Source of the DNA: a virus
Lineage: Duplodnaviria > Heunggongvirae > Uroviricota > Caudoviricetes
Reading direction: 5' to 3' (one strand)
IMG/VR virus record: IMGVR_UViG_2695420863_000013
Length of the DNA: 13,420 nucleotides
This document shows positions 230 to 11,644 of this stretch, in pieces; within the stretch, counting starts at the first letter, position 1; each line of letters begins with the position of its first letter. The notes under the pieces were generated by a model. The model searched no databases, was not told the DNA's origin, and saw only the letters and a program-made list of their open reading frames with translations. The position numbers and the translations under genes are program-made.

Positions 230-430
230 GAAAATAAAGGGATAACGATGATAGTTTGAGAAAAACAGAAATAACACTTTTGTGGCAAAGCATGGTGCCG
301 GGTGCCTCCCGGTGAATTCAGTATCAGCACCTGAATCCGCGATTACCCCATATTCCTTCTTGCTGATTGCCCCACCGCACAGGGGGATTCACCATGCAGA
401 AGTGTTTTTAATAAACAGCAAACAAAAAAA

Positions 431-544
431 TCAAGCATTATGCAGGCTGTTTCTTTTTATCACCGGCCACAGCAATACCATAATGCCGCAGACCAGCACC
501 CCATCCGCCAGCACCGACATGATTCTGCTGGTGAAATCCACCAT
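431..544 (-). CDS. Possible small hydrophobic protein (37 aa, one predicted transmembrane segment)
   Basis: ATG at 544 to TGA at 431; translation MVDFTSRIMSVLADGVLVCGIMVLLWPVIKRNSLHNA. Below the size cutoff of the ORF track. No convincing Shine-Dalgarno; sits between the TerB-like gene and the terminator. Confidence 0.25.
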   Translation of the reverse strand: MVDFTSRIMSVLADGVLVCGIMVLLWPVIKRNSLHNA

Positions 545-593
545 CACCACCAGAAACAGCAGGAGTGCAGCCACAGTCAGGCGCAGTTTTACC

Positions 594-1027
594 GTCACAG
601 GTAATTCTCCAGACGAAGACCCAGAACACCGGCAATCTCTTCCAGCACCTTGCGCTCTTCCGGCTCAATTTCGCCGTCTGCCTCCGCAATGGCCACCGCC
701 ACATCCAGCACATCTTCCGCTTCACGCGTATCGTGTTTCACATCCTCGATCTCACGTAACGCCGCACGACGACCAGTTTTAAAGTTCGTATCCAGCTGAC
801 CGATAATGGTTGCGCTAATCGCATTAATTTCTGACGTAAACGCGTACAGCGCAGGCTGATTACGCAGTACCTGTTCGATCTTCGCTTTCTAGGAAGCCTC
901 ACATTCACCATCTGCACAGGCCACCAGGTATGCGGCGTTAATCACCACCTGTGCCAGATCGCGTTTTTCAAACTTTCTAATTTCCGTTGCCGCTCTGCGG
1001 GCTTTTTTTACCAAAAATACCAAACAT
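594..1027 (-). pseudogene. TerB-family (tellurite-resistance TerB-like) gene disrupted by a frameshift and an in-frame TAG
   Basis: ATG at 1027 with AAGGAA Shine-Dalgarno gives MFGIFGKKSPQSGNGN then stop. The TerB-like frame continues out of frame (ARRAATEIRKFEKRDLAQVVINAAYLVACADGECEAS-stop-KAKIEQVL...EADGEIEPEERKVLEEIAGVLGLRLENYL). The shift maps to a T7/A7 homopolymer at 1003-1009 and the amber codon to 889-891. Resemblance to TerB is from recalled sequence. Confidence 0.6.
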
Positions 1028-1196
1028 CGTGACGTTCCTTTGGGTGGGTGAGCCAACGCCCGGGAGCGATCTGCCCACAGAGAAAGTCACACTGACCACT
1101 CCATAAGCTCCCCCCGAAAGGCTCTGTGGTTGGTATGCGCCGGGCGTGGTGCGGATACAAAAAAGGTCCGCAAAAGCGAGCGAGGGAAAATAAGTG

Positions 1197-1273
1197 TGGT
1201 GCGTTGTACTGGGTTCGAACCAGTGACCGATTGCTTAGAAGGCAATTGCTCTGTCCGGCTGAGCTAAAAACGC
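1197..1273 (-). tRNA. argO: tRNA-Arg (anticodon TCT), 77 nt with encoded CCA
   Basis: Minus-strand cloverleaf: D stem GCTC/GAGC, anticodon stem ATTGC/GCAAT with loop CTTCTAA, T loop TTCGAAC, 3' CCA. One T-C mismatch in the acceptor stem. Symbol inferred from the ileZ-argN-argO order known in lambdoid/Stx phages. Confidence 0.75.
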
Positions 1274-1286
1274 AGAATACCGATAA

Positions 1287-1363
1287 TGGACCGCCATCGG
1301 AGACTCGAACCCCGCGAAACCAGCTTCGAAGGCTGGCGTTCTATCCCGATGAGCTAATGGCGG
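1287..1363 (-). tRNA. argN: tRNA-Arg (anticodon TCG), 77 nt with encoded CCA
   Basis: Minus-strand cloverleaf: perfect acceptor stem CCGCCAT/ATGGCGG (C1-G72), anticodon stem CCAGC/GCTGG with loop CTTCGAA, T loop TTCGAGT, 3' CCA. One mismatch in the D stem. Symbol assigned by order only. Confidence 0.7.
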
Positions 1364-1370
1364 TATGTGA

Positions 1371-1446
1371 TGGTGGCCCTTGCTGGATTTGAACCAGCGG
1401 CCTGGCGATTATGAGTCGCTCGCTCTCACCACTGAGCTAAAGGGCC
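1371..1446 (-). tRNA. ileZ: tRNA-Ile2 (anticodon CAT, lysidine type), 76 nt with encoded CCA
   Basis: Minus strand reads GGCCCTTTAGCTCAGTGGTGAGAGCGAGCGACTCATAATCGCCAGGCCGCTGGTTCAAATCCAGCAAGGGCCACCA. Near-identical in architecture to E. coli tRNA-Ile2 (ileX/ileY) as recalled; perfect acceptor stem. Confidence 0.85.
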
Positions 1447-1455
1447 GGGCGCAGG

Positions 1456-1484
1456 ATAATAACGTTACGAAATCAATGTTGCAA
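1456..1484 (-). promoter_or_regulatory. Sigma-70 promoter for the tRNA cluster (TTGCAA -17- TATTAT)
   Basis: Minus strand has -35 TTGCAA (1484..1479), a 17-nt spacer, and -10 TATTAT (1461..1456), ending 9 nt upstream of the tRNA-Ile 5' end. Confidence 0.55.
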
Positions 1485-1564
1485 GCATTCAAGAATCACC
1501 TGGTTAAAAATTACCCTTGCTTCCTCCACCAGCGCATTCACCATGTCTATCCGAGATAAGTGGC

Positions 1565-1598
1565 ACAAAAAAACCCGCTTGTGGGCGGGTTTTGTTTG
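1565..1598. terminator. Bidirectional intrinsic terminator just downstream of the Q-like gene (candidate tR'-like late terminator)
   Basis: Hairpin CCCGC-TTGTGG-GCGGG at 1574-1589, flanked by A7 upstream and TTTTGTTTGCTTTT downstream, so U-tracts exist on both strands. Position between Q and the tRNAs matches lambdoid pR'/tR' layout. Confidence 0.6.
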
Positions 1599-1656
1599 CT
1601 TTTGCCATCACGTACAAAATCGGCAAAATATCAGATTTGCATGAAATATATGCCTT

Positions 1657-2346
1657 TCAATCTACTTTTGCAACACTTTGCTTTGAAAATGCCGCCTTTT
1701 GTTTTGAACGCGTTCTCATTACAAACAATAAAGCCTCACTATCCAGTCGGTGAAAAATGTGTTTCATTGCAACCCAGTGACGAGTAAATGTTTTGGACCA
1801 GTTTTTAGTTGTCACTCCCACCAGTAATGCCAGCTCCTTGTATTCATAACCTTCCCCACCAAAAAGTTCTGCTTTTACTGCCTGCGCCGCCAGCCAGATT
1901 AATTTTTTCAGGCGTTCCTGCGTTTTCCCTGCAATTTTTCTGGTACCGGATTGAGTATTAAATTCATTCCACGCCCACTGTGTTATCGCGATCTGATATT
2001 CCCAACAAATACTCCCGCTGTAACACCACAACAACCAGGCTTTATGATGTTCTTCAAGAGACAGAACAGCCCGCCGCCACGATGATGTCGAAAACTCAAT
2101 CGGACTGACCAGAGGAATTGACGTCCCCTTCGCCAGCGATTGCTTTCCCGGGATTGGGGGATTATCCCGCGTTATCATTTTTCCAGTCACTTCATCGCGG
2201 TACCGGATTTTTTTACGCCTGTAACGCCCTGTATCGAACATGGCATTCTCCTGCCAGGCTTCAAGCTGACCTTTTGTTGCCCCACTCAAATCAGCGGTGG
2301 CGATAATGAGCTGCTCACGCACAAACTGTAAATACTGGTTATTCAT
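1657..2346 (-). CDS. Q-like late antiterminator (by position and loose family resemblance)
   Basis: Probable start ATG at 2346, overlapping the rusA TGA stop as ATGA (the track ORF begins 2 codons earlier at GTG 2352). Immediately upstream of a terminator and the tRNA cluster and downstream of rusA, the canonical Q position. No zinc finger of the lambda-Q type was seen, so the family is uncertain. Confidence 0.55.
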   Translation of the reverse strand: MNNQYLQFVREQLIIATADLSGATKGQLEAWQENAMFDTGRYRRKKIRYRDEVTGKMITRDNPPIPGKQSLAKGTSIPLVSPIEFSTSSWRRAVLSLEEHHKAWLLWCYSGSICWEYQIAITQWAWNEFNTQSGTRKIAGKTQERLKKLIWLAAQAVKAELFGGEGYEYKELALLVGVTTKNWSKTFTRHWVAMKHIFHRLDSEALLFVMRTRSKQKAAFSKQSVAKVD

Positions 2347-2708
2347 GCGCACCCCAGTTCTGTGATTTTTATCCCCAACCGCCCACCAGGAACAAGCTGA
2401 CCGCGCACAATATTGATTTCATCAAACTGCTCGTCGTCTATGAGCAGCCCCGCATGCGTCAGTGCATCCAGTGGTGCCTTCAGGATATTGTCCAGGTCAC
2501 GACGGCGCTTATCCGGTGGCTCTGCAATAATTTTTATTGCCAGCCTTCCGGACAGGTTTAATTTCAACCGCTGCTGGCGAACAATTAGTGCCACATCACG
2601 GCGATAACGCTCACCGACTTTTGATACAAAATATGTGCTGCCACGACGTCGCCAGTAAGTATTCACCGTTGGCGGGTAAGGCAAAACAAATTCTATGCGT
2701 TCAGTCAT
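2343..2708 (-). CDS. rusA: Holliday junction resolvase RusA
   Basis: 121-aa protein MTERIEFVLPYPPTVNTYWRRRG...PDKRRRDLDNILKAPLDALTHAGLLIDDEQ...GGRLGIKITELG. The RRRDLDN motif and overall pattern match RusA of DLP12 as recalled. Start abuts the upstream gene's stop. Confidence 0.85.
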   Translation of the reverse strand: MTERIEFVLPYPPTVNTYWRRRGSTYFVSKVGERYRRDVALIVRQQRLKLNLSGRLAIKIIAEPPDKRRRDLDNILKAPLDALTHAGLLIDDEQFDEINIVRGQLVPGGRLGIKITELGCA

Positions 2709-3764
2709 TTATGCTTTCCACTTCAGGACGCCCGAATTTCTCGCGTGCATTAAAAAACGAATCAGCAACAACAGCTGGCTGCCGTGTTTTTCTTCAAAAT
2801 CTTTTACCCCGGCGTGCAGTTCGTTATGACATTTACGGCACAGCGGAATAACAAACAAATCGTCAGCCTTCGTTCCCATCCCTCCTAGTCCATGACCAAT
2901 GATGTGATGCGGATCATCTGCCTGATTGTCACACGTCATGCATTTCTGCGTTTTTACCCAGCGCGTGTATACGGGCATCTCTTCCCGTTGTGGTTTCTGG
3001 CGCTGGAGATACTGAGCCGGTGACTCCGGATCAACGGCAATGCTTACCACCGTCTTTTCCTGTGGCGGGTTTTGCTGGTGGGCGTGAGGCATCGGCGCAA
3101 GATTTTTTGTGCGCTGCTTCAGTATGCTGGTGGCGGTCTGCTCTCCCGGCACGATGTCGCTTTCACGGTACATTGAGCGGATTTTTTCCGCACGCAACCC
3201 CAGCGAACGACGTAATACCGCTTCCGGTAGCGCGTCCGCCACCTGATTGCGGACCGCCCACCAGGATAATTCAGCCAGCGATAATTCCCGTTCCTGCGAG
3301 CCATTCATTGCATGGCGTATGACGTCAATCATCCATGCAGACAGGTTTTGGTGAGCAAGTTGCCCGAGTGATTCGGAGGTCTGGTCGCGCAGCTGGTTGT
3401 CGCAGTGCCAGCACAACACCATTGCGCCGGTACCATAACGGTGAATGACGGTTTCACTGTGGTGATAATCGCCGTGTGGCCACTGGCAGGATTTAACATG
3501 GCGCAGTAACCAATCAGACAATGCGCCAGCGCCACCAGCAGCACGAATCACTCGTTCGTCGCTGAAAAATGGCAGTAATGATTTATCCTCCGCCAGCGGC
3601 TGGCGAACGGCAGGAACGACCCCGGACGGCAGATTACGCATGCTTTTCGGTTCCGGCTCCACCAGTACCCGGGTATTGTGGAATACCGGCATGGATTCAC
3701 GGCCCGGCTTAACGATCACCAGCCCGAGTTCCGGTACCAGAACAGGTCGAAGTAATACCCGCAC
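2709..3764 (-). CDS. DUF968-type phage protein (YdfU-like) with a C-terminal HNH nuclease motif
   Basis: 351-aa ORF with GTG start at 3764 preceded by GGAGGT Shine-Dalgarno. C-terminus has CMTCDNQ...HHIIGH...CRKCHNELH (CxxC...HH...CxxCHxxxH, HNH-like). Same position as ydfU in the Qin prophage (quuQ-ydfU-rem-hokD), as recalled. Confidence 0.6.
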   Translation of the reverse strand: MRVLLRPVLVPELGLVIVKPGRESMPVFHNTRVLVEPEPKSMRNLPSGVVPAVRQPLAEDKSLLPFFSDERVIRAAGGAGALSDWLLRHVKSCQWPHGDYHHSETVIHRYGTGAMVLCWHCDNQLRDQTSESLGQLAHQNLSAWMIDVIRHAMNGSQERELSLAELSWWAVRNQVADALPEAVLRRSLGLRAEKIRSMYRESDIVPGEQTATSILKQRTKNLAPMPHAHQQNPPQEKTVVSIAVDPESPAQYLQRQKPQREEMPVYTRWVKTQKCMTCDNQADDPHHIIGHGLGGMGTKADDLFVIPLCRKCHNELHAGVKDFEEKHGSQLLLLIRFLMHARNSGVLKWKA

Positions 3765-4080
3765 GTTACCTCCAGATGCGTTGCTGGAATGTGCGGGACG
3801 GACGCGGTGGGCGTTCGGAGTAAGGGAGTCTGACTGAGATTATCCAGTGACGATAGTCGAGACTAAGAGCTTTCTTAACCTCGTATCCACGCCTGCGGTA
3901 ACACTGAATTATCCATTCAGCCTGCTCTTCAGTGCATGGAGGATGCTGGAACCAGTCTGATGTGAATGCGTGAAAACGCCGTCCGCACCTGCTGGCAAAG
4001 ACAGCAGAATCATTAGAATTGTGTAATTTGGTATCGTGCGCCATCGGTTGTCTCTGCTGGCGCAGCAGGTGCCAGTTGTT
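3067..4080. repeat. Direct repeat copy A of a ~1-kb segment (5' two-thirds of DUF968 gene + small basic protein gene)
   Basis: Sequence from 3067 is identical or near-identical to 4413 onward (ctggtgggcgtgaggcatcggcgcaagattttttgtgcgctgcttcag...); homology continues with increasing divergence into the small-protein genes. Confidence 0.7.
3766..4044 (-). CDS. Small basic phage protein (Rem-like position), copy 1 of a paralogous pair
   Basis: Start placed at internal ATG 4044 (MAHDTKLHNSNDSAVFASRCGRR...) by alignment with the paralog at 5103..5375; the longer track ORF (to 4173) would run through the hok terminator. Stop lies 1 nt before the DUF968 start. Confidence 0.5.
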   Translation of the reverse strand: MAHDTKLHNSNDSAVFASRCGRRFHAFTSDWFQHPPCTEEQAEWIIQCYRRRGYEVKKALSLDYRHWIISVRLPYSERPPRPSRTFQQRIWR

Positions 4081-4116
4081 CAGGCTGGCGTGCGAATTGT
4101 AAACCAGAATGCCAGG

Positions 4117-4143
4117 AAAAAACAAAACCCGCCGAAGCGGGTT
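4117..4143 (-). terminator. Intrinsic terminator downstream of hok copy 1 (copy 1 of a repeated hairpin)
   Basis: Hairpin AACCCGC-CGAA-GCGGGTT (4126-4143) followed on the minus strand by TTTTGTTTTTT. Confidence 0.6.
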
Positions 4144-4211
4144 AAGTGCGGGTGCATTGAGGATGCCTGACACATCAGAGGTGGCGAGGGATTTCTCCCC
4201 CGCCTGGTCTC

Positions 4212-4367
4212 TTACTCCTCAGGTTCGTAAGCTGTGAAGACAGCGACCTCCGTCTGGCCGGTTCGGATTCGTACCTCGCAGAGGTCTTTCCTCGTTACCA
4301 GTGCCGTCACTATGACGGTTAAACAGATGACGATCAGGACGATTAACATCGCCTTTTGCTGCTTCAT
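4212..4367 (-). CDS. hok: Hok-family type I toxin (HokD/RelF-like), copy 1
   Basis: 51-aa MKQQKAMLIVLIVICLTVIVTALVTRKDLCEVRIRTGQTEVAVFTAYEPEE; matches HokD/RelF as recalled except one A-to-V change. Start set at the MKQQ methionine within the longer track ORF. Confidence 0.85.
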   Translation of the reverse strand: MKQQKAMLIVLIVICLTVIVTALVTRKDLCEVRIRTGQTEVAVFTAYEPEE

Positions 4368-4402
4368 AGCCTGCTTCTCCTTGCCTTTCGGCACGTAAGA
4401 GG

Positions 4403-5101
4403 CTAACCTAACTGGTGGGCGTGAGGCATCGGCGCAAGATTTTTTGTGCGCTGCTTCAGTATGCTGGTGGCGGTCTGCTCTCCCGGCACGATGTCGCTTT
4501 CACGGTACATTGAGCGGATTTTTTCCGCACGCAACCCCAGCGAACGACGTAATACCGCTTCCGGTAGCGCGTCCGCCACCTGATTGCGGACCGCCCACCA
4601 GGATAATTCAGCCAGAGATAATTCACGCTCCTGCGTACCGCTTATTGCGTGACCGATGACGTCAATCATCCATGCTGACAGGTTTTGATGAGCAAGTTGC
4701 CCGAGTGATTCGGAGGTCTGGTCACGCAACTGGTTGTCGCAGTGCCAGCACAACACCATTGCGCCGGTACCATAACGGTGAATGACGGTTTCGCTGTGAT
4801 GATAATCGCCGTGTGGCCACTGGCAGGATTTAATATGGCGCAACAGCCAGTCAGACAATGCACCAGCACCACCAGCAGCACGAATCACCCGTGCGTTACT
4901 GAAAAACGGCAGCAATGTTTTGTCTTCCACCAGCGGCTGGCGAACGGCAGGAACGACCCCGGACGGCAGATTACGCATGCTTTTCGGTTCCGGCTCCACC
5001 AGTACCCGGGTATTGTGGAATACCGGCATGGATTCACGGCCCGGCTTAACGATCACCAGCCCGAGTTCCGGTACCAGAACAGGTCGAAGTAATACCCGCA
5101 C
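4403..5101 (-). CDS. Truncated DUF968 paralog (232 aa; lacks the C-terminal HNH region), probable gene remnant
   Basis: N-terminal ~230 aa nearly identical to the 2709..3764 protein, then ends at TAG 4403-4405 exactly where homology to the hok cassette begins. GTG start at 5101 abuts the upstream gene's stop. Confidence 0.6.
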   Translation of the reverse strand: MRVLLRPVLVPELGLVIVKPGRESMPVFHNTRVLVEPEPKSMRNLPSGVVPAVRQPLVEDKTLLPFFSNARVIRAAGGAGALSDWLLRHIKSCQWPHGDYHHSETVIHRYGTGAMVLCWHCDNQLRDQTSESLGQLAHQNLSAWMIDVIGHAISGTQERELSLAELSWWAVRNQVADALPEAVLRRSLGLRAEKIRSMYRESDIVPGEQTATSILKQRTKNLAPMPHAHQLG

Positions 5102-5420
5102 GTTACCTCCAGATGCGTTGCTGGAATGTGCGGGACGGACGCGGTGGGCGTTCGGAATAAGGGAGTCTGACGTAGATTATCCAGTGACGATAATCGAGGG
5201 TGAGGGCTTTCCTAAACTCATATCCACGTCTGCGGTAGTTATGAATCAGCCATTCGGCCTGTTCTTCAGTACAGGGATCGTGCTGATACCAGTCATATTT
5301 GAATGCGTGAGAACGCCACCCGTGCCTGCTGGCAAAGGCAGAATCAGAATTGCGAAATTTGAAATTATGCGCCATTGTCATCTCCAATGGCGCTGCAGGT
5401 TGCCAGTTGTTCAGGCTGGC
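4413..5420. repeat. Direct repeat copy B of the same ~1-kb segment
   Basis: Pairs with 3067-4080; junction with the hok cassette at 4404-4412. Confidence 0.7.
5103..5375 (-). CDS. Small basic phage protein (Rem-like position), copy 2 of a paralogous pair
   Basis: ATG at 5375 (MAHNFKFRNSDSAFASRHGWRS...) with GGAG 6 nt upstream; C-terminal half closely matches copy 1 (…LDYRHWII.VRLPYSERPPRPSRTFQQRIWR). Confidence 0.5.
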   Translation of the reverse strand: MAHNFKFRNSDSAFASRHGWRSHAFKYDWYQHDPCTEEQAEWLIHNYRRRGYEFRKALTLDYRHWIIYVRLPYSERPPRPSRTFQQRIWR

Positions 5421-5434
5421 TCACGTATTATAAC

Positions 5435-5608
5435 TTATTCCCGAACTACCTTGAAACCGAGTCTTTCCAAGTATTCAATGAATGCCTCAACAGATAACAC
5501 TACATGATCATCAGGAATTAACGCTGTGTAGGTAATACCCCCATTCTCAACGCGCACAGCATAGAGGCCATCTTCACTAAAAATTTCACGTAATTCTTCG
5601 ATTTTCAT
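5435..5608 (-). CDS. Hypothetical small protein (57 aa)
   Basis: ATG at 5608 with AAGGA Shine-Dalgarno 8 nt upstream; MKIEELREIFSEDGLYAVRVENGGITYTALIPDDHVVLSVEAFIEYLERLGFKVVRE. No family recognised. Confidence 0.45.
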   Translation of the reverse strand: MKIEELREIFSEDGLYAVRVENGGITYTALIPDDHVVLSVEAFIEYLERLGFKVVRE

Positions 5609-5691
5609 CAACAGAATCCTTCCAGATAAATAGCACTCCCCCTGTTCGGGGTCCATCCCTCTTCTCCCTGCGCGCTACTTAAGTATTTTTG

Positions 5692-5721
5692 ATTCTATTC
5701 TGGCACCGTCCAAAACTTCAA
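5692..5721 (-). promoter_or_regulatory. Candidate sigma-70 promoter for the 57-aa ORF (TTGAAG -18- TAGAAT)
   Basis: Minus strand has -35 TTGAAG (5721..5716), an 18-nt spacer, and -10 TAGAAT (5697..5692), just downstream of the module terminator. Confidence 0.3.
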
Positions 5722-5729
5722 ACACGTTG

Positions 5730-5761
5730 AAAATAAAAACAAAAAACCCGCCGAAGCGGGT
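5730..5761 (-). terminator. Intrinsic terminator downstream of the HTH-peptidase gene (copy 2 of a repeated hairpin)
   Basis: Hairpin ACCCGC-CGAA-GCGGGT (5746-5761) followed on the minus strand by TTTTTTGTTTTTATTTT; starts 5 nt after the 5766 stop. Confidence 0.7.
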
Positions 5762-5765
5762 ATAC

Positions 5766-6869
5766 TCAAACAATCTGGAAAATATTTCTTGGATTTGTAA
5801 TAGGTCTGTTGATGGAGAACAACTCACGAATTAAATCTTGGCTCAAGCCAGTTTTCATAAGAATTCTTAGCCAGGTTGCATCATCCAGCATTTCAATCGC
5901 CTCGGCCAGCATGCCGGGTTCTTCAGGGCGCAAAAGTTCATCACCAGGTTCAACTCTCGTATACCCTCTGGAATTAAGATGCATATAGCCAGTTCTTGCC
6001 TGTTCCTGGGTCAATAAGCCTAATGCGCTGGCTCGATAAATACACATTTTAAGGCTGATTTTCCATCTAAGTTTAAATTCAACCAGAGCATTCCAGTCGA
6101 ATTGCTTACCTCGTATTCGTGGAAATTCTTTAATGAAAGATAACCTGGGAACTAATAAGGCGCTCGAAAAGTGATCGGCTTGTGATTCCGTAAGTTTATC
6201 ACCTGTCGTTATGCCCTCATGCATTACTAAATGCCCTAATTCATGACCTAAATCAGAGCGAAATCTACATATGCTTTTTTTAACATTGTTCCTGATGATA
6301 ACAGGCCTGTTATTGTGAACAGTAAAAGCATCAACACGATCATCGACTCCCGTAACATGCGCAACGATTACCCCTAAACTCTCCGCCAATTTAACCATTG
6401 ATGATATAGGGCCAAGACCTAAATTCCAGGCACGGCGACAATCTTCTGCCACTCGCTCAATATCATTCGGAGTAAGTAATTCAGCCCCTGGGTGCTCCGG
6501 TATGTTAACGTCAGGAAATTCGATTTCACCTTCAACAGCAGAAATTATAATATTAAGAATCTCAGCCCTGGCCAATACACTATTAGTCAGCGTTTGAGTC
6601 CTGGACTTCTTACTCCGAAAATGGCAGACATCACTTTCCAGAGCGTATTTTCGTTCAGTAAAAAGAAAACTGGACTTAATCATAAGCGCTGAAGATATTA
6701 ACTCAAGACATTGCTCCGATGGCCTGCACCCCTTCTCCAGTTTGCTAACGAATTGCTTTGTCTTGCCAATTTTTTCGGCTAACTCTTCACAAGAAAGCCC
6801 AACAGCCATTCTCGCTAGTTTGAGCTTATCACCCCGATACTCAGTGAAGTTATTCACCTGATGTTCCAT
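5766..6869 (-). CDS. XRE-family HTH fused to an ImmA/IrrE-type (COG2856, Peptidase_M78-like) zinc metallopeptidase
   Basis: N-terminal HTH (LKLARMAVGLSCEELAEKIGKTKQFVSKLEKG). HEXXH zinc motif in RSDLGHELGHLVMHEG, and the downstream signature ESQADHFSSALLVP typical of COG2856. Start probably ATG 6869 (track gives GTG 6872); overlaps the upstream gene by about 20 nt. AT-rich relative to flanks. Confidence 0.75.
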   Translation of the reverse strand: MEHQVNNFTEYRGDKLKLARMAVGLSCEELAEKIGKTKQFVSKLEKGCRPSEQCLELISSALMIKSSFLFTERKYALESDVCHFRSKKSRTQTLTNSVLARAEILNIIISAVEGEIEFPDVNIPEHPGAELLTPNDIERVAEDCRRAWNLGLGPISSMVKLAESLGVIVAHVTGVDDRVDAFTVHNNRPVIIRNNVKKSICRFRSDLGHELGHLVMHEGITTGDKLTESQADHFSSALLVPRLSFIKEFPRIRGKQFDWNALVEFKLRWKISLKMCIYRASALGLLTQEQARTGYMHLNSRGYTRVEPGDELLRPEEPGMLAEAIEMLDDATWLRILMKTGLSQDLIRELFSINRPITNPRNIFQIV

Positions 6870-7500
6870 CACTGCTCACATCCAAATCTTTATCCTTCGT
6901 ACGCCGACGAAGAGGCACCTTATTAATCTCCGCTTCGTCAGGGAGTGTGTTATAATCAAGAGGCATAAGCGGCATCGATGCTGTAGATTGATGAGAAACT
7001 ATACTAATCTGAGCACCATAAGTATTAAATCCAACAAGAGCTACCTCCCAACGAGGCAGTGTGGACTCTAATTCACCATCGCCCTCTTCGGATAAAAAAG
7101 GCTCAGCTATGACTCGCCATGTAATATCTTGCTCAGCCTCAACATCACCAAACAATGAGAGCTGCTCATACTCTACTTTATTTCGACGCAGACGATGTTT
7201 CTTTTTGGGGTTATTAATGCAATCTTTGGTAAATTGTAGCGGAACTTTATTTAAAGCAACTACATAGTCCAACCCCTTGGAAATCATCTCAAGGCCAGGA
7301 ATTGCATCTTCATTTTGAATAAGATGATTTCTGACCCAATCATAAGCCCTTACACCTTCAGACCAGTTGCTGTCTAATGCGTGCTTATGATAGTACAGCT
7401 GCTCAAGTACGTTAGCGATCTCCGCCAACAAGTGGCGAACATAGTTTTCAGCAAGATAAGGTTGAAATTCCCAACAAGGAGCTAACTGATTTTCATTCAT
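6850..7500 (-). CDS. Hypothetical 216-aa protein, first gene of the two-gene module (candidate effector/toxin)
   Basis: ATG at 7500 (MNENQLAPCWEFQPYLAENYVRHLL...). No recognisable motif; has a basic patch KKKHRLRRNK and an acidic C-terminus. AT-rich. Translationally overlaps the HTH-peptidase gene. Confidence 0.55.
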   Translation of the reverse strand: MNENQLAPCWEFQPYLAENYVRHLLAEIANVLEQLYYHKHALDSNWSEGVRAYDWVRNHLIQNEDAIPGLEMISKGLDYVVALNKVPLQFTKDCINNPKKKHRLRRNKVEYEQLSLFGDVEAEQDITWRVIAEPFLSEEGDGELESTLPRWEVALVGFNTYGAQISIVSHQSTASMPLMPLDYNTLPDEAEINKVPLRRRTKDKDLDVSSDGTSGE

Positions 7501-7535
7501 TTCAAGTTTCGCTTTTTTTAGAATTCGTAAACCAC

Positions 7536-7564
7536 ATATTTTCGCATTTTTCTATTTTTGTCAA
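7536..7564 (-). promoter_or_regulatory. Candidate promoter for the two-gene module (perfect -35 TTGACA, weak -10)
   Basis: Minus strand has TTGACA (7564..7559), a 17-nt spacer, and AAATAT (7541..7536), about 35 nt upstream of the 7500 start. The -10 is poor, so the call is tentative. Confidence 0.3.
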
Positions 7565-7573
7565 CCAGACTAA

Positions 7574-7597
7574 TGCAAAAACCCGCCGAAGCGGGTT
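7574..7597 (-). terminator. Intrinsic terminator downstream of hok copy 2 (copy 3 of a repeated hairpin)
   Basis: Hairpin AACCCGC-CGAA-GCGGGTT (7580-7597) with a short U-tract (5 T) on the minus strand. Confidence 0.5.
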
Positions 7598-7858
7598 AAG
7601 TGCGGGTGCGTTGAGGATGCCTGGCACATCAGAGGTGGCGGGAGATTACTCCCCCGCCGGGTCTCTTACTCCTCAGGTTCGTAAGCTGTGAAGACAGCGA
7701 CCTCCGTCTGGCCGGTTCGGATTCGTACCTCGCAGAGGTCTTTCCTCGTTACCAGTGCCGTCACAATGACGGTTAAACAGATGACGATCAGGGCGATTAA
7801 CATCGCCTTTTGCTGCTTCATAGCCTGCTTCCCCTTGCCTTTCGGCACGTAAGAGGCT
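7580..7858. repeat. hok cassette repeat (terminator hairpin + hok + ~40 nt upstream), second copy; first copy at 4126-4404
   Basis: About 279 bp nearly identical between 4126-4404 and 7580-7858, including the hairpin and the whole hok ORF; homology ends at ggctaacct on the upstream side in both copies. Confidence 0.75.
7666..7821 (-). CDS. hok: Hok-family type I toxin (HokD/RelF-like), copy 2
   Basis: 51-aa MKQQKAMLIALIVICLTVIVTALVTRKDLCEVRIRTGQTEVAVFTAYEPEE, identical to HokD/RelF as recalled. Start set at the MKQQ methionine with a GGGGAAG Shine-Dalgarno-like element upstream. Confidence 0.85.
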   Translation of the reverse strand: MKQQKAMLIALIVICLTVIVTALVTRKDLCEVRIRTGQTEVAVFTAYEPEE

Positions 7859-8058
7859 AACCTACATTTGTGAGACATAGATTGGGCCTCAGATTAATGT
7901 TAAGCGTCTTGCAGGACGCGAAATGTTAACTGGGGCTTTTCTCTATCTGCCTTTCAGTGTTCATGCCTGAGACAGATAGCCTCAAGCACCCGCAGCCATT
8001 CTACTTAACTCACGTCACCTCGCCAATATGAAATCAATCAGAAAGGTGATCCATAAAA

Positions 8059-8745
8059 TCACTCCTTCTCTTCTTTTCCGTAGTGGAGTTGGCCAATTTT
8101 GATAAGAGGGCGTCCCTGAGATTTGCGGTGTAGATTGGTATCGCGCAGAGAATACACACAGCCACAATATTCCTGCTGATAGAATTTTTCGCGCTTGCTG
8201 ATTTCAATCATACGGGACGAGCCGCCCTGCTTGCGCCAGTTATAATCCCAGTACACCATACCCGGATAATGCGCAACAGCTCGCCGCCCACACTCGTTAA
8301 CCTGCTGCATATTTTTCCAGCGTGAAATGCCCAGTGAACTGCTGATCACACTGAAACCATTTTCAGCAGCGTACAACGCTGTCCGCTCAAAACGCATGTC
8401 AAAACACATGGTACAACGGATCCCCCTCTCAGGCTCCCATTCCATTCCTTTGGCACGTTCAAACCAGTTGTCGGTGTCGTAATCAGCATCGATAAACGGC
8501 ACGCCGTGTTGTTCAGCAAAGCGAATATTTTCATCCTTACGAATTAAATACTCTTTCTGAGGATGAATGTTCGGGTTGTAGAAAAAGATGGTGTAGTCGA
8601 TTCCCGAGGCCTGAAGCGCCTCCATCACTTCACCGGAACATGGAGCACAGCAAGAGTGCAGTAGTAGTTTGTTTGCCCCGTTTGGGAGCTCCAATTTAGG
8701 CCGTTTGAAATCAGCAATAGTCATAAATATTTTTATTGGGGTCAT
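8059..8745 (-). CDS. DUF208/QueH-like protein (putative epoxyqueuosine reductase family)
   Basis: 228-aa ORF with an N-terminal [11 protein letters not shown] motif and a C-terminal [11 protein letters not shown] motif, which I recall as characteristic of QueH. No good Shine-Dalgarno at either candidate ATG (8745 or 8724). Confidence 0.55.
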
Positions 8746-10143: not shown

Positions 10144-10809
10144 TCAAATAAAACCAGCTGCCTTCCGGCGTTCGTATTCCTGTTTCAGCCGTTCAATTGG
10201 CGTTGGCCCTTGCGGGTGTTTCGCCCCTTCCAGTTGTCGTCGCACTGGCGGAACACTCATCCCGTTACCAACATGCTTTGCCCATTTCGTCAGTTGCCGT
10301 TCCGCAAGTCGTTTTAACTCACCCTGCGTCATCTGGCGCTCAATCCCTCTGGTACGCATTTCGAGGCAGATGTGGTACAGCACAGGCTGAGGCCACGGAT
10401 ATTTGTCGCTTCCGTCATATCGCCAGGACTCATCACGCCAGCGGCGGTACTCCTCCATCACAGCATCCACCGTCAGGCCAAATGGATTGGCCCCGCTTTC
10501 TGAAATCAGCGCCACAAACTCAGCCAGGTCCGGAGGCCATGTTTCACCCGCCCGGCAGCGGTCCATGCACTGGCGGCAGACCTGTCGGATTTGCTGCTCA
10601 GTCATCGCGCCAATCTGTGCAATCCAGAGCTTCGAAGGTGCGGCCCCGTTCTTCTGGGTCCAGCGGTTCGAATAAACCTCCCCCATGAGTTCCCACAGCT
10701 TCCAGACCGTTTCCGTCGCTGATAAATCCGTTTTCACGTTCCCACTGCTCACGTGCTGCCCGAATTTCCTGAACTGCCCGTGATGCGGTGCCACCTGGTG
10801 CTGCTGCAT
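10144..10809 (-). CDS. Replication protein P-like (lambda P family helicase loader)
   Basis: C-terminal region (…DKYPWPQPVLYHICLEMRTRGIERQMTQGELKRLAERQL…PPV…) resembles lambda P as recalled. ATG 10809 has a GGGGG Shine-Dalgarno; this start lies 211 nt inside the upstream O-like ORF, so the true start is uncertain. Confidence 0.65.
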   Translation of the reverse strand: MQQHQVAPHHGQFRKFGQHVSSGNVKTDLSATETVWKLWELMGEVYSNRWTQKNGAAPSKLWIAQIGAMTEQQIRQVCRQCMDRCRAGETWPPDLAEFVALISESGANPFGLTVDAVMEEYRRWRDESWRYDGSDKYPWPQPVLYHICLEMRTRGIERQMTQGELKRLAERQLTKWAKHVGNGMSVPPVRRQLEGAKHPQGPTPIERLKQEYERRKAAGFI

Positions 10810-11644
10810 GGTTTACCCCCTTGCTGACTGGCTTAACCTGCGCCCTGACGTGATTTACGTGACGGGCGAATTTCTGCTCCCACTGAACCTGCGTGAAAAC
10901 TTTCCCCTCCGCTGCCCAGTAGTCCCGGAAAGCGGCAAGTTCAGCAGGTGTAAATTCCGGCTCCGGCAAAGCCATCCCCCACAACGCAGCCCGTCGTCGA
11001 AAATCCGGCGACGGATGCCAGTCATCGACCATCGGAAATTTCCCGATGGGTTCGCTCAGTCCATCCAGGGATGCAGGTTCTGCTGCCTGCAACGGCGTAC
11101 CACTCGACTCACTGGTCGGAGCACTCTCGCGCACGTGCGCGTTATGTGTGGGGTTTAATTCTTTATCTGTATCTTTATCTGTCGTGACTCGTCGTGACAT
11201 GTCGTGACATATGCGTGACTCGTCGTGACACCCCTCATTCTGTTTTCGTAATTTTTCCCTCTCGCGCTGCGCTCTCTTGCGCTCTGCCGGGGATTTCGCG
11301 GTTTGTGAAACGTTGCCATTGTCCTCTTTCAGTACCTGGCGTTTTTCCCATCCGGTGATTAAATCTCCATCAAGTACCCGCCCCTGCATTGCCTGTAAAA
11401 TTGAATCAATTACTTCTTCCGTCACATCAAGCGCACTTGCTAAATCTTCCGTCGTGACATCAATGTGACCACGTAGTGACACGCCGTGACATGTCGTGAC
11501 ATTTCGTGACGCGCTCACCAGAAGGTGGATATACACTGCCATCACTGTTGCAATTGGCTGCCCTGACACCCTGGCAATTGTTCGCCACTTAGGGTCATTT
11601 GGCATGTCATGCCATAATCTGAGCCAGGCGTTAGCCATACTCAC
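10598..11644 (-). CDS. Replication initiator (O-like position) containing internal iteron arrays
   Basis: 348-aa ORF directly upstream of the P-like gene and downstream of the YdaT-like gene. GAGGTG Shine-Dalgarno with GTG 11644 or ATG 11638 as start. Two clusters of periodic repeats lie inside it. The low-complexity C-terminal tail overlaps the P-like gene and may not be real coding sequence. Confidence 0.55.
   Translation of the reverse strand: MSMANAWLRLWHDMPNDPKWRTIARVSGQPIATVMAVYIHLLVSASRNVTTCHGVSLRGHIDVTTEDLASALDVTEEVIDSILQAMQGRVLDGDLITGWEKRQVLKEDNGNVSQTAKSPAERKRAQREREKLRKQNEGCHDESRICHDMSRRVTTDKDTDKELNPTHNAHVRESAPTSESSGTPLQAAEPASLDGLSEPIGKFPMVDDWHPSPDFRRRAALWGMALPEPEFTPAELAAFRDYWAAEGKVFTQVQWEQKFARHVNHVRAQVKPVSKGVNHAAAPGGTASRAVQEIRAAREQWERENGFISDGNGLEAVGTHGGGLFEPLDPEERGRTFEALDCTDWRDD
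11150..11232. repeat. Candidate replication origin: AT-rich stretch with two CTTTATCTGT repeats, then five GTCGTGAC-type direct repeats at about 10-bp spacing
   Basis: GTCGTGAC (or a one-base variant) begins at 11181, 11191, 11201, 11213 and 11222, preceded by ttaattctttatctgtatctttatctgt. Located mid-gene in the O-like ORF, as ori-lambda is in O. Confidence 0.5.
11449..11510. repeat. Second array of six CGTGAC/GTGAC repeats at 10-11 bp spacing (iteron-like)
   Basis: GTGAC cores end at 11458, 11469, 11480, 11490, 11500 and 11510, in the 5' part of the O-like ORF. Confidence 0.45.

Follow-up and report, generated by a model that had tools for sequence, protein, structure and literature searches.

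A RosmerTA cassette framed by two copies of a predicted terminator hairpin downstream of hok in a Rac/Qin-like lambdoid prophage

How does a pair of genes come to lie between two copies of the same transcription terminator? The question is raised by a 13,420-nucleotide (nt) stretch of a tailed phage (IMG/VR record IMGVR_UViG_2695420863_000013, Caudoviricetes; hereafter the window, meaning the whole stretch analyzed), in which one short hairpin recurs three times. A first-pass annotation had placed a two-gene module between copies of this hairpin and read it as a moron, inserted at or recombined through a terminator. By its profile matches the module is a RosmerTA anti-phage toxin-antitoxin system, and relatives that lack it place its joints at the hairpin. 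The reading that we favor, with a probability of roughly 70%, is that the RosmerTA moron was added after the terminator of a hok cassette by a crossover inside short identical terminators. The coordinates of the principal features are collected in Table 1, where the hairpin copies are numbered by position.

The hairpin core, CCCGCCGAAGCGGG, is present as an exact 14-mer at all three places that had been reported for it (4128-4141, 5747-5760, and 7582-7595), and the whole window holds no fourth such site even with two mismatches allowed. The minus strand is both the working strand of the three hairpins and the coding strand of every gene in the region. A terminator scan called all three (stems 7597-7580, 4143-4126, and 5761-5746), each with 6 to 7 pairs, five of them GC, a 4-nt loop, and a T-run directly after the stem. 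Folding the RNA, one of the checks that had been proposed, returned the same structure for each copy, ACCCGC-UUCG-GCGGGU ahead of a U-run; the energies ranged from -10.9 to -15.1 kcal/mol and the z-scores from -2.6 to -3.8. A cUUCGg tetraloop, with its C-G closing pair, is a very stable loop. All three copies are thus predicted to be intrinsic (Rho-independent) terminators of the minus strand. The stop codons of Hok/Gef open reading frames (ORFs) precede copies 1 and 3 by about 70 nt, and copy 2 closely follows the stop codon of a gene with helix-turn-helix (HTH) and peptidase domains, which agrees with the earlier assignment of two of the hairpins to hok cassettes and of the third to the HTH-peptidase gene.

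The core is expected 0.07 times in the window, and three copies were reached in 0 of 200 shuffles. This test, together with the empty sites described below, rules out chance recurrence, although the shuffle-based figure overstates the rarity of the event because the hairpin is very common among phage terminators. Moreover, a 287-nt repeat (4124-4410 = 7578-7864, 97% identical) ends in copy 1 at one site and in copy 3 at the other, so that the two represent one cassette present twice, not independent recurrences. The first-pass annotation had named the embedding of the hairpins in longer homology as a sign against its interpretation; such embedding is found for these two copies, in the form of the hok repeat, and leaves the interpretation standing. 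Between copies 2 and 3, exact identity reaches 20 nt (5742-5761 = 7577-7596), AAAAACCCGCCGAAGCGGGT, forming a direct repeat with copy 3 as its left arm and copy 2 as its right arm. Copy 1 owes its proximity to the module to a junction at 4410/4411 that is considered further below, and it plays no part in bracketing. The bracketing that had been claimed therefore holds for copies 2 and 3 and fails for copy 1.

Sites that lack the module show what was added. In the Qin prophage of Escherichia coli K-12, hokD, a single hairpin, and rem are contiguous, with no module between them; to the left of that hairpin the sequence matches what lies left of copy 2 in the window, and to the right it matches what lies right of copy 3. 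The module and one hairpin, 1,835 bp in all, are thus what the window has in addition. When the two flanks in the window are fused into a synthetic empty site (5441-5760 with 7596-7915), this query aligns unbroken; of 5,426 E. coli genomes, 1,871 cover 80% or more of it, the best match being about 96% identical. The filled arrangement is present in 231 of these genomes and the module itself in 238, empty sites being about eight times commoner than filled ones. Module-free relatives, whose existence had been left to be checked, thus set the boundaries of the empty site at the hairpin. We also considered a three-gene insertion that would include rem, as homology between the two hok units resumes only at 5433. 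This was rejected: hok, hairpin, and rem are contiguous without the module in K-12 and in the 1,871 genomes, which makes rem part of an alternative backbone rather than cargo.

The module codes for two proteins only, and searches of its ORFs against Pfam and PADLOC revealed no recombinase or transposase. The product of rmrA matches the PADLOC RmrA profile (6.2e-105) and the Pfam domains HTH_3 (5e-7) and Peptidase_M78 (6e-11), and its residues H210, E211, and H214 are invariant in an alignment of alleles. The product of rmrT, which retrieved no match in a Pfam search, matches the PADLOC RmrT profile PDLC03929 (4.6e-25, 86 bits) over residues 7 to 209 of 216. These two matches identify the module as a predicted RosmerTA system, with RmrT as toxin and RmrA as antitoxin; their genes share about 20 nt. 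The U-run of the hok terminator leads straight into CTGGTTGACA, with AAATAT 17 nt further. Six alleles, diverged from that of the window down to 32% identity in RmrA, all have TGGTTGAC unchanged and retain the AAATAT position; one of the six has no hok upstream. The module would thus form a self-contained transcription unit consisting of a putative promoter, rmrT, rmrA, and the hairpin. Its guanine-plus-cytosine (GC) content is 39 to 44%, against 51 to 58% in the flanking phage genes. Being absent from relatives, distinct in GC content, and provided with a predicted terminator of its own, the module has the marks of a moron. The observation from which we started is thus confirmed, and the interpretation of the module as a moron recombined through a terminator is supported by the empty sites, the GC contrast, and the joints at the hairpin. 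A single-protein scan of genome contigs with RmrA gave one locus, in E. albertii, that is 100% identical; this is uninformative on other genera, and an alignment-based viral scan was the informative one.

Table 1. Positions of the RosmerTA module, the hairpin copies, and the neighboring genes in the window
Feature	Position	Strand	Remarks
Inserted segment	5762..7596	-	1,835 bp, module plus one hairpin; phase arbitrary within the 20-nt repeat
rmrT, predicted RosmerTA toxin, 216 aa	6850..7500	-	PADLOC RmrT match, near full length
rmrA, predicted RosmerTA antitoxin, 368 aa	5766..6872	-	N-terminal HTH_3 plus Peptidase_M78 (ImmA/IrrE) with HExxH; likely ATG at 6869
Promoter-like site of the module	7536..7564	-	-35 TTGACA at 7564-7559, 17-nt spacer, -10 AAATAT at 7541-7536
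Terminator copy 3 (predicted)	7577..7597	-	3' hairpin of the complete hok/sok cassette; AACCCGC-UUCG-GCGGGUU then UUUUUG
Terminator copy 2 (predicted)	5742..5761	-	ACCCGC-UUCG-GCGGGU then UUUUUUGUUUUU; 4 nt after the rmrA stop codon
Terminator copy 1 (predicted)	4126..4143	-	3' hairpin of the second, 5'-truncated hok cassette
hok2, hokD-like toxin coding sequence	7666..7821	-	Pfam HOK_GEF, 3e-23; relatives annotated as hokD
sok region of the complete hok2 cassette	7816..7991	-	Rfam RF01794, 120.5 bits
hok1, partial cassette	4124..4410	-	Coding sequence 4212-4367, HOK_GEF 6.5e-23; 97% identical to 7578-7864
rem-like small backbone gene	5435..5656	-	Own promoter-like site TTGAAG-18-TAGAAT at 5721-5692; outside the insertion

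The joints can be followed on the far side of the cassette as well. After the hairpin of the window's allele comes TTTTTTGTTTTTATTTTCAACG, which is the sequence after the hok hairpin in empty sites of the rem type. An allele with 94% identity (loci L004 and L273-L276) instead ends in a hairpin with a UACG loop, followed by TTTTGTTTTTTCC, the sequence after the hok hairpin in empty sites of the y94 type, including copy 1 of the window. A single Rosmer lineage of 94 to 100% nucleotide identity is thus joined either to the rem or to the y92/y94 backbone, two unrelated backbones, with the break in the hairpin or within a few nucleotides of it. Among 134 occurrences of the hok-type hairpin in viral contigs and genomes, 40 are rem-type and 41 y94-type empty sites. 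The slot after the hokD terminator also accepts at least six other types of cargo, each followed by a copy of the hairpin. Its Rosmer cargos are the window type, the 94% allele, a Tritos type with a CUCG loop, and an L056 type with the exact hairpin; the last, with 308 bits for PDLC03929 and 666 bits for PDLC03943, is the canonical PADLOC subtype, present in the same slot in other prophages. In a two-sided table of junctions, 12 downstream classes are found joined to the hok 3' end and 6 upstream classes to the region upstream of y94.

A further cargo of the slot, seen at more than 25 loci (e.g., L157, L190, and L152), is a 130-aa lipoprotein, in the order QueH, hok, truncated hairpin, lipoprotein, full hairpin, y92. 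On the hok side the truncated hairpin CCCGCTTCGGCG is followed by TTTTTTCC, and on the other side the full hairpin is followed by TTTTGTTTTTTCC, so that a duplication of about 28 nt, with the backbone-specific T-tract in it, lies around the cargo, one of its copies having lost 7 nt. The truncation probably weakens termination, in which case the lipoprotein gene would be read through from hok. In another prophage (L029, about 340-1700 of the segment), two exact hairpins in the same slot enclose genes for a 119-aa HTH protein and a 158-aa M78 peptidase (HELGH), for which PADLOC matched HTH_VI only; they may represent a pair of regulators, or else a toxin-antitoxin or defense module not described before.

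On the basis of these joints, the following course of events can be conceived. The Rosmer cassette would already have ended in a terminator with the same generic stem when a crossover took place between collinear lambdoid genomes, inside short identical terminators, probably catalyzed by phage enzymes of the Red/RecET type. Such a crossover would bring the cassette next to hok at one end and next to rem or y94 at its other end, placing 1,835 bp directly after the U-run of the hok terminator and leaving the 20-nt direct repeat, hairpin plus five U, on both sides. Selection would then keep joints that fall in the gap between a terminator and the next promoter, because a change there disturbs neither neighbor. 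The hairpins would keep hok, Rosmer, and rem separate in the lysogen, and during lytic growth antiterminated transcription would pass through them; the flanking repeats should also ease the loss or exchange of the cassette.

Several observations weigh against this reconstruction. Stretches of 20 nt are at the low end of the homology that Red-type recombinases use efficiently. The hairpin is far from being peculiar to this slot, as the first 120 viral-contig matches to AACCCGCCGNAGCGGGTAT, whose four variants all have UNCG loops, show it in over 60 unrelated flank contexts. Because the junction loci were themselves gathered with the hairpin as query, its apparent part in the joints is exaggerated. 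Rosmer alleles of 91 to 93% identity in prophages that lack hok still end in ACCCGC-loop-GCGGGT, with loops UAUAU, UUCAU, UGCAU, UGCUU, or AUU and once with the exact sequence, and one distant allele has a compensated CCCAC/GUGGG stem. Given the same stem outside hok contexts, the second copy need not derive from the hok terminator, and the module's terminator is probably its own and not a copy of that of hok. The exact 20-nt identity may then be partly convergent, or a prior similarity that recombination exploited or homogenized. Rosmer alleles of 59 to 74% identity have no hairpin. In prophages of the Shiga toxin-producing E. coli type (L006 at 2782-4540, L298, and L299), a RosmerTA system with an RmrA 59% identical to that of the window lies upstream of hok/sok, directly against the hok cassette; as it has no terminator of its own, its transcription could run on into hok/sok. 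In addition, whether the module was gained or lost is judged from how frequent the two states are, from base composition, and from the variety of cargos; the three terminators and the module promoter are predictions; and the promoter-like site, with its weak -10 element, was not called by a consensus scanner. The first-pass annotation had regarded the module's presence in contexts not bounded by this hairpin as a further sign against insertion at a terminator. This is found for the more distant alleles (L005 keeps the stem but has another loop, and L006 has no such hairpin), and the reading is not overturned by it.

Much of this evidence is shared by a serious, if unlikely, rival, in which a generic terminator arose convergently, the cassette was inserted by illegitimate joining with no part for the hairpin, and selection mimics hairpin guidance. 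The occurrence of the same stem in non-hok alleles and its generic nature across phages are both expected from it, as are the UACG and CUCG loops of the 94% allele and the Tritos type, which differ from the UUCG loop of hok. What it accommodates less well is that the second hairpin is followed, in three types of backbone, by the T-tract and flank that normally come after the hok hairpin, which puts the joint within about 10 nt of the hairpin each time. Independent joints are repeatedly exact at this point, and a partial duplication with the backbone-specific T-tract in it surrounds the lipoprotein cargo.

A crossover inside the terminators also has a more far-reaching version, which we regard as a long shot: the cUNCGg hairpin might be a portable cassette-boundary element at which defense cargos (Rosmer subtypes, the HTH/peptidase pair, the lipoprotein, hok) are preferentially exchanged. 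If so, exchange would proceed by hairpin-focused short-homology recombination or through a structure-specific enzyme such as DUF968 or RusA, and the position after the hokD terminator would be a previously undescribed defense hotspot with a defined exchange mechanism.

The filled state might instead be ancestral, with empty sites arising by deletion between the 20-nt repeats. Direct repeats promote precise deletion, and empty and filled sites do differ by exactly one repeat unit plus the cargo. Against this, empty sites are about eight times more frequent and occur on several diverged backbones, the base composition of the module is unlike that of its surroundings, and one ancestral filled state leaves the at least six other cargos of the slot unexplained. 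We therefore consider loss very unlikely as the general account; occasional secondary loss by repeat deletion probably takes place, without explaining the diversity of cargos. Barely credible is a dedicated cassette site, in which the hairpin would be a structured site recognized by an enzyme (like attC or a repetitive extragenic palindrome) and the repeats its duplications. The many cargos bounded by the same hairpin and the nearby genes for an HNH-like DUF968 protein and RusA are what such a site would lead one to expect, but the cassettes contain no recombinase, the extent of the repeat (12 to 28 nt) and the loops vary, and the same hairpin occurs in contexts without DUF968 and as an ordinary gene-end terminator in many unrelated phages. 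A target-site duplication by a transposon was rejected, as the module has no transposase and the extent of the repeat is variable. The likeness between the module start and the y94 upstream region, GCATT..TCTGGTTKACAA, may be a mere resemblance of -35 elements and was not used.

RosmerTA systems combine a Zn-peptidase antitoxin with variable toxins (bioRxiv 10.1101/2022.05.11.491447; PMC10440598). The module in the window shares with them the toxin gene in first position, an antitoxin with HTH and ImmA/IrrE Zn-peptidase domains bearing HExxH, and matches to both PADLOC profiles; it departs from them in that its RmrT profile match is only moderate (86 bits) and its defense activity is a prediction. 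As an insertion, it compares with the morons of lambdoid phages, a concept reportedly due to Hendrix and Juhala. Like these, it consists of extra genes that are absent from relatives, have their own promoter-like site and terminator and a different base composition, lie between two backbone genes, and are plausibly of benefit to the lysogen. Unlike them, its cargo is a two-gene defense toxin-antitoxin system and its terminator is identical in sequence to that of the neighboring gene, and it is this identity that allows the joints to be mapped to the hairpin. The RosmerTA moron is thus a textbook-type case of a known kind and does not constitute a new class of element.

The recombination that we favor also has a precedent, in that Red-type relaxed homologous recombination of lambda with the Qin and Rac prophages has been shown experimentally, with homologies of hundreds of base pairs and identity runs of at least 49 bp (PMC3945230). 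Joints at a short conserved gene-boundary sequence are common to the linker (short-homology) model of lambdoid mosaicism and to the present locus, which belongs to the Qin/Rac kind of prophage used in that study, whereas the conserved sequence here is about 20 nt long and is a terminator under structural selection. In K-12 Qin, the stretch from the 3' region of hokD (relF) through the hairpin into the 5' region of rem is collinear with the flanks in the window at about 94% identity; K-12 differs in having relBE upstream of hokD and neither sok nor a module between hokD and rem. Our literature search retrieved nothing specific on a hokD/ydfU defense hotspot or on terminator-guided exchange of morons, which is a weak negative. 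The locus provides a base-pair-resolved case of a prophage gaining, swapping, and possibly losing an anti-phage system. It makes the position after the hokD terminator in Qin/Rac-like prophages a variable slot that is useful for the mining of defense genes, and it bears on the debate over whether lambdoid mosaicism results from short-homology linkers or from illegitimate recombination followed by selection.

The surroundings of the module follow a familiar plan. The gene order, cI-like repressor, YdaS, YdaT, DnaT-like, P-like replication protein, DUF1627, DUF977, QueH, hok, Rosmer, rem, a gene for 92 to 94 aa, DUF968, RusA, and Q antiterminator, places the hairpins in the predicted early-right operon, from the replication genes to Q, of a Rac/Qin-like lambdoid prophage, in a region that is the equivalent of the lambda nin region. 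QueH (epoxyqueuosine reductase, 8059-8745; Pfam 1e-65), directly upstream of hok/sok, is likely to be cargo itself. A mok-like frame overlapping hok2 runs on to 7878. The rem-like gene is a mosaic: the match to K-12 rem is limited to the 5' part, between about 5541 and the hairpin, and the 3' part matches a different variant, as in L032 and L035. Its 73-aa product had no match in PADLOC, and neither it nor the y94 protein had one in Pfam.

The junction at 4410/4411 divides the window in two. The segment 4412-13420 is 99.5% identical to one viral contig (L210), and 329-4410 is about 94% identical to other prophages. The joint fuses a truncated DUF968 ORF (4403-5101) to the partial hok1 cassette, which is cut at 4410 and lacks sok, its promoter, and the mok start; hok1 accordingly has no match to RF01794 and, if the junction is real, would lack antisense control. 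The junction gave no match when sought in the 5,426 complete E. coli genomes or among viral and metagenome contigs; it reflects either a rare rearrangement or a misassembly. A listed ORF of 135 aa (3766-4173) crosses hairpin copy 1; its homologs have 90 to 94 aa, with an ATG near 4045, and the listed start is probably overextended.

Three further observations concern more distant parts of the window. Two clusters of CGTGAC(A/T) repeats spaced by 10 nt (11171-11230 and 11463-11512) lie inside the DnaT-like gene (10598-11644) and look like the iterons of a lambdoid replication origin. A match to the small RNA STnc100 (Rfam, 100.8 bits) lies at 254-426, near the late-gene end. Finally, a fourth hairpin (1565-1596), with the gene for the Q antiterminator (1657-2352) on one side and three tRNA genes (1200-1446) on the other, has the same CCCGC/GCGGG stem, a 6-nt loop, and flanking A- and T-runs, and so a bidirectional form; it is a candidate terminator of the late operon.

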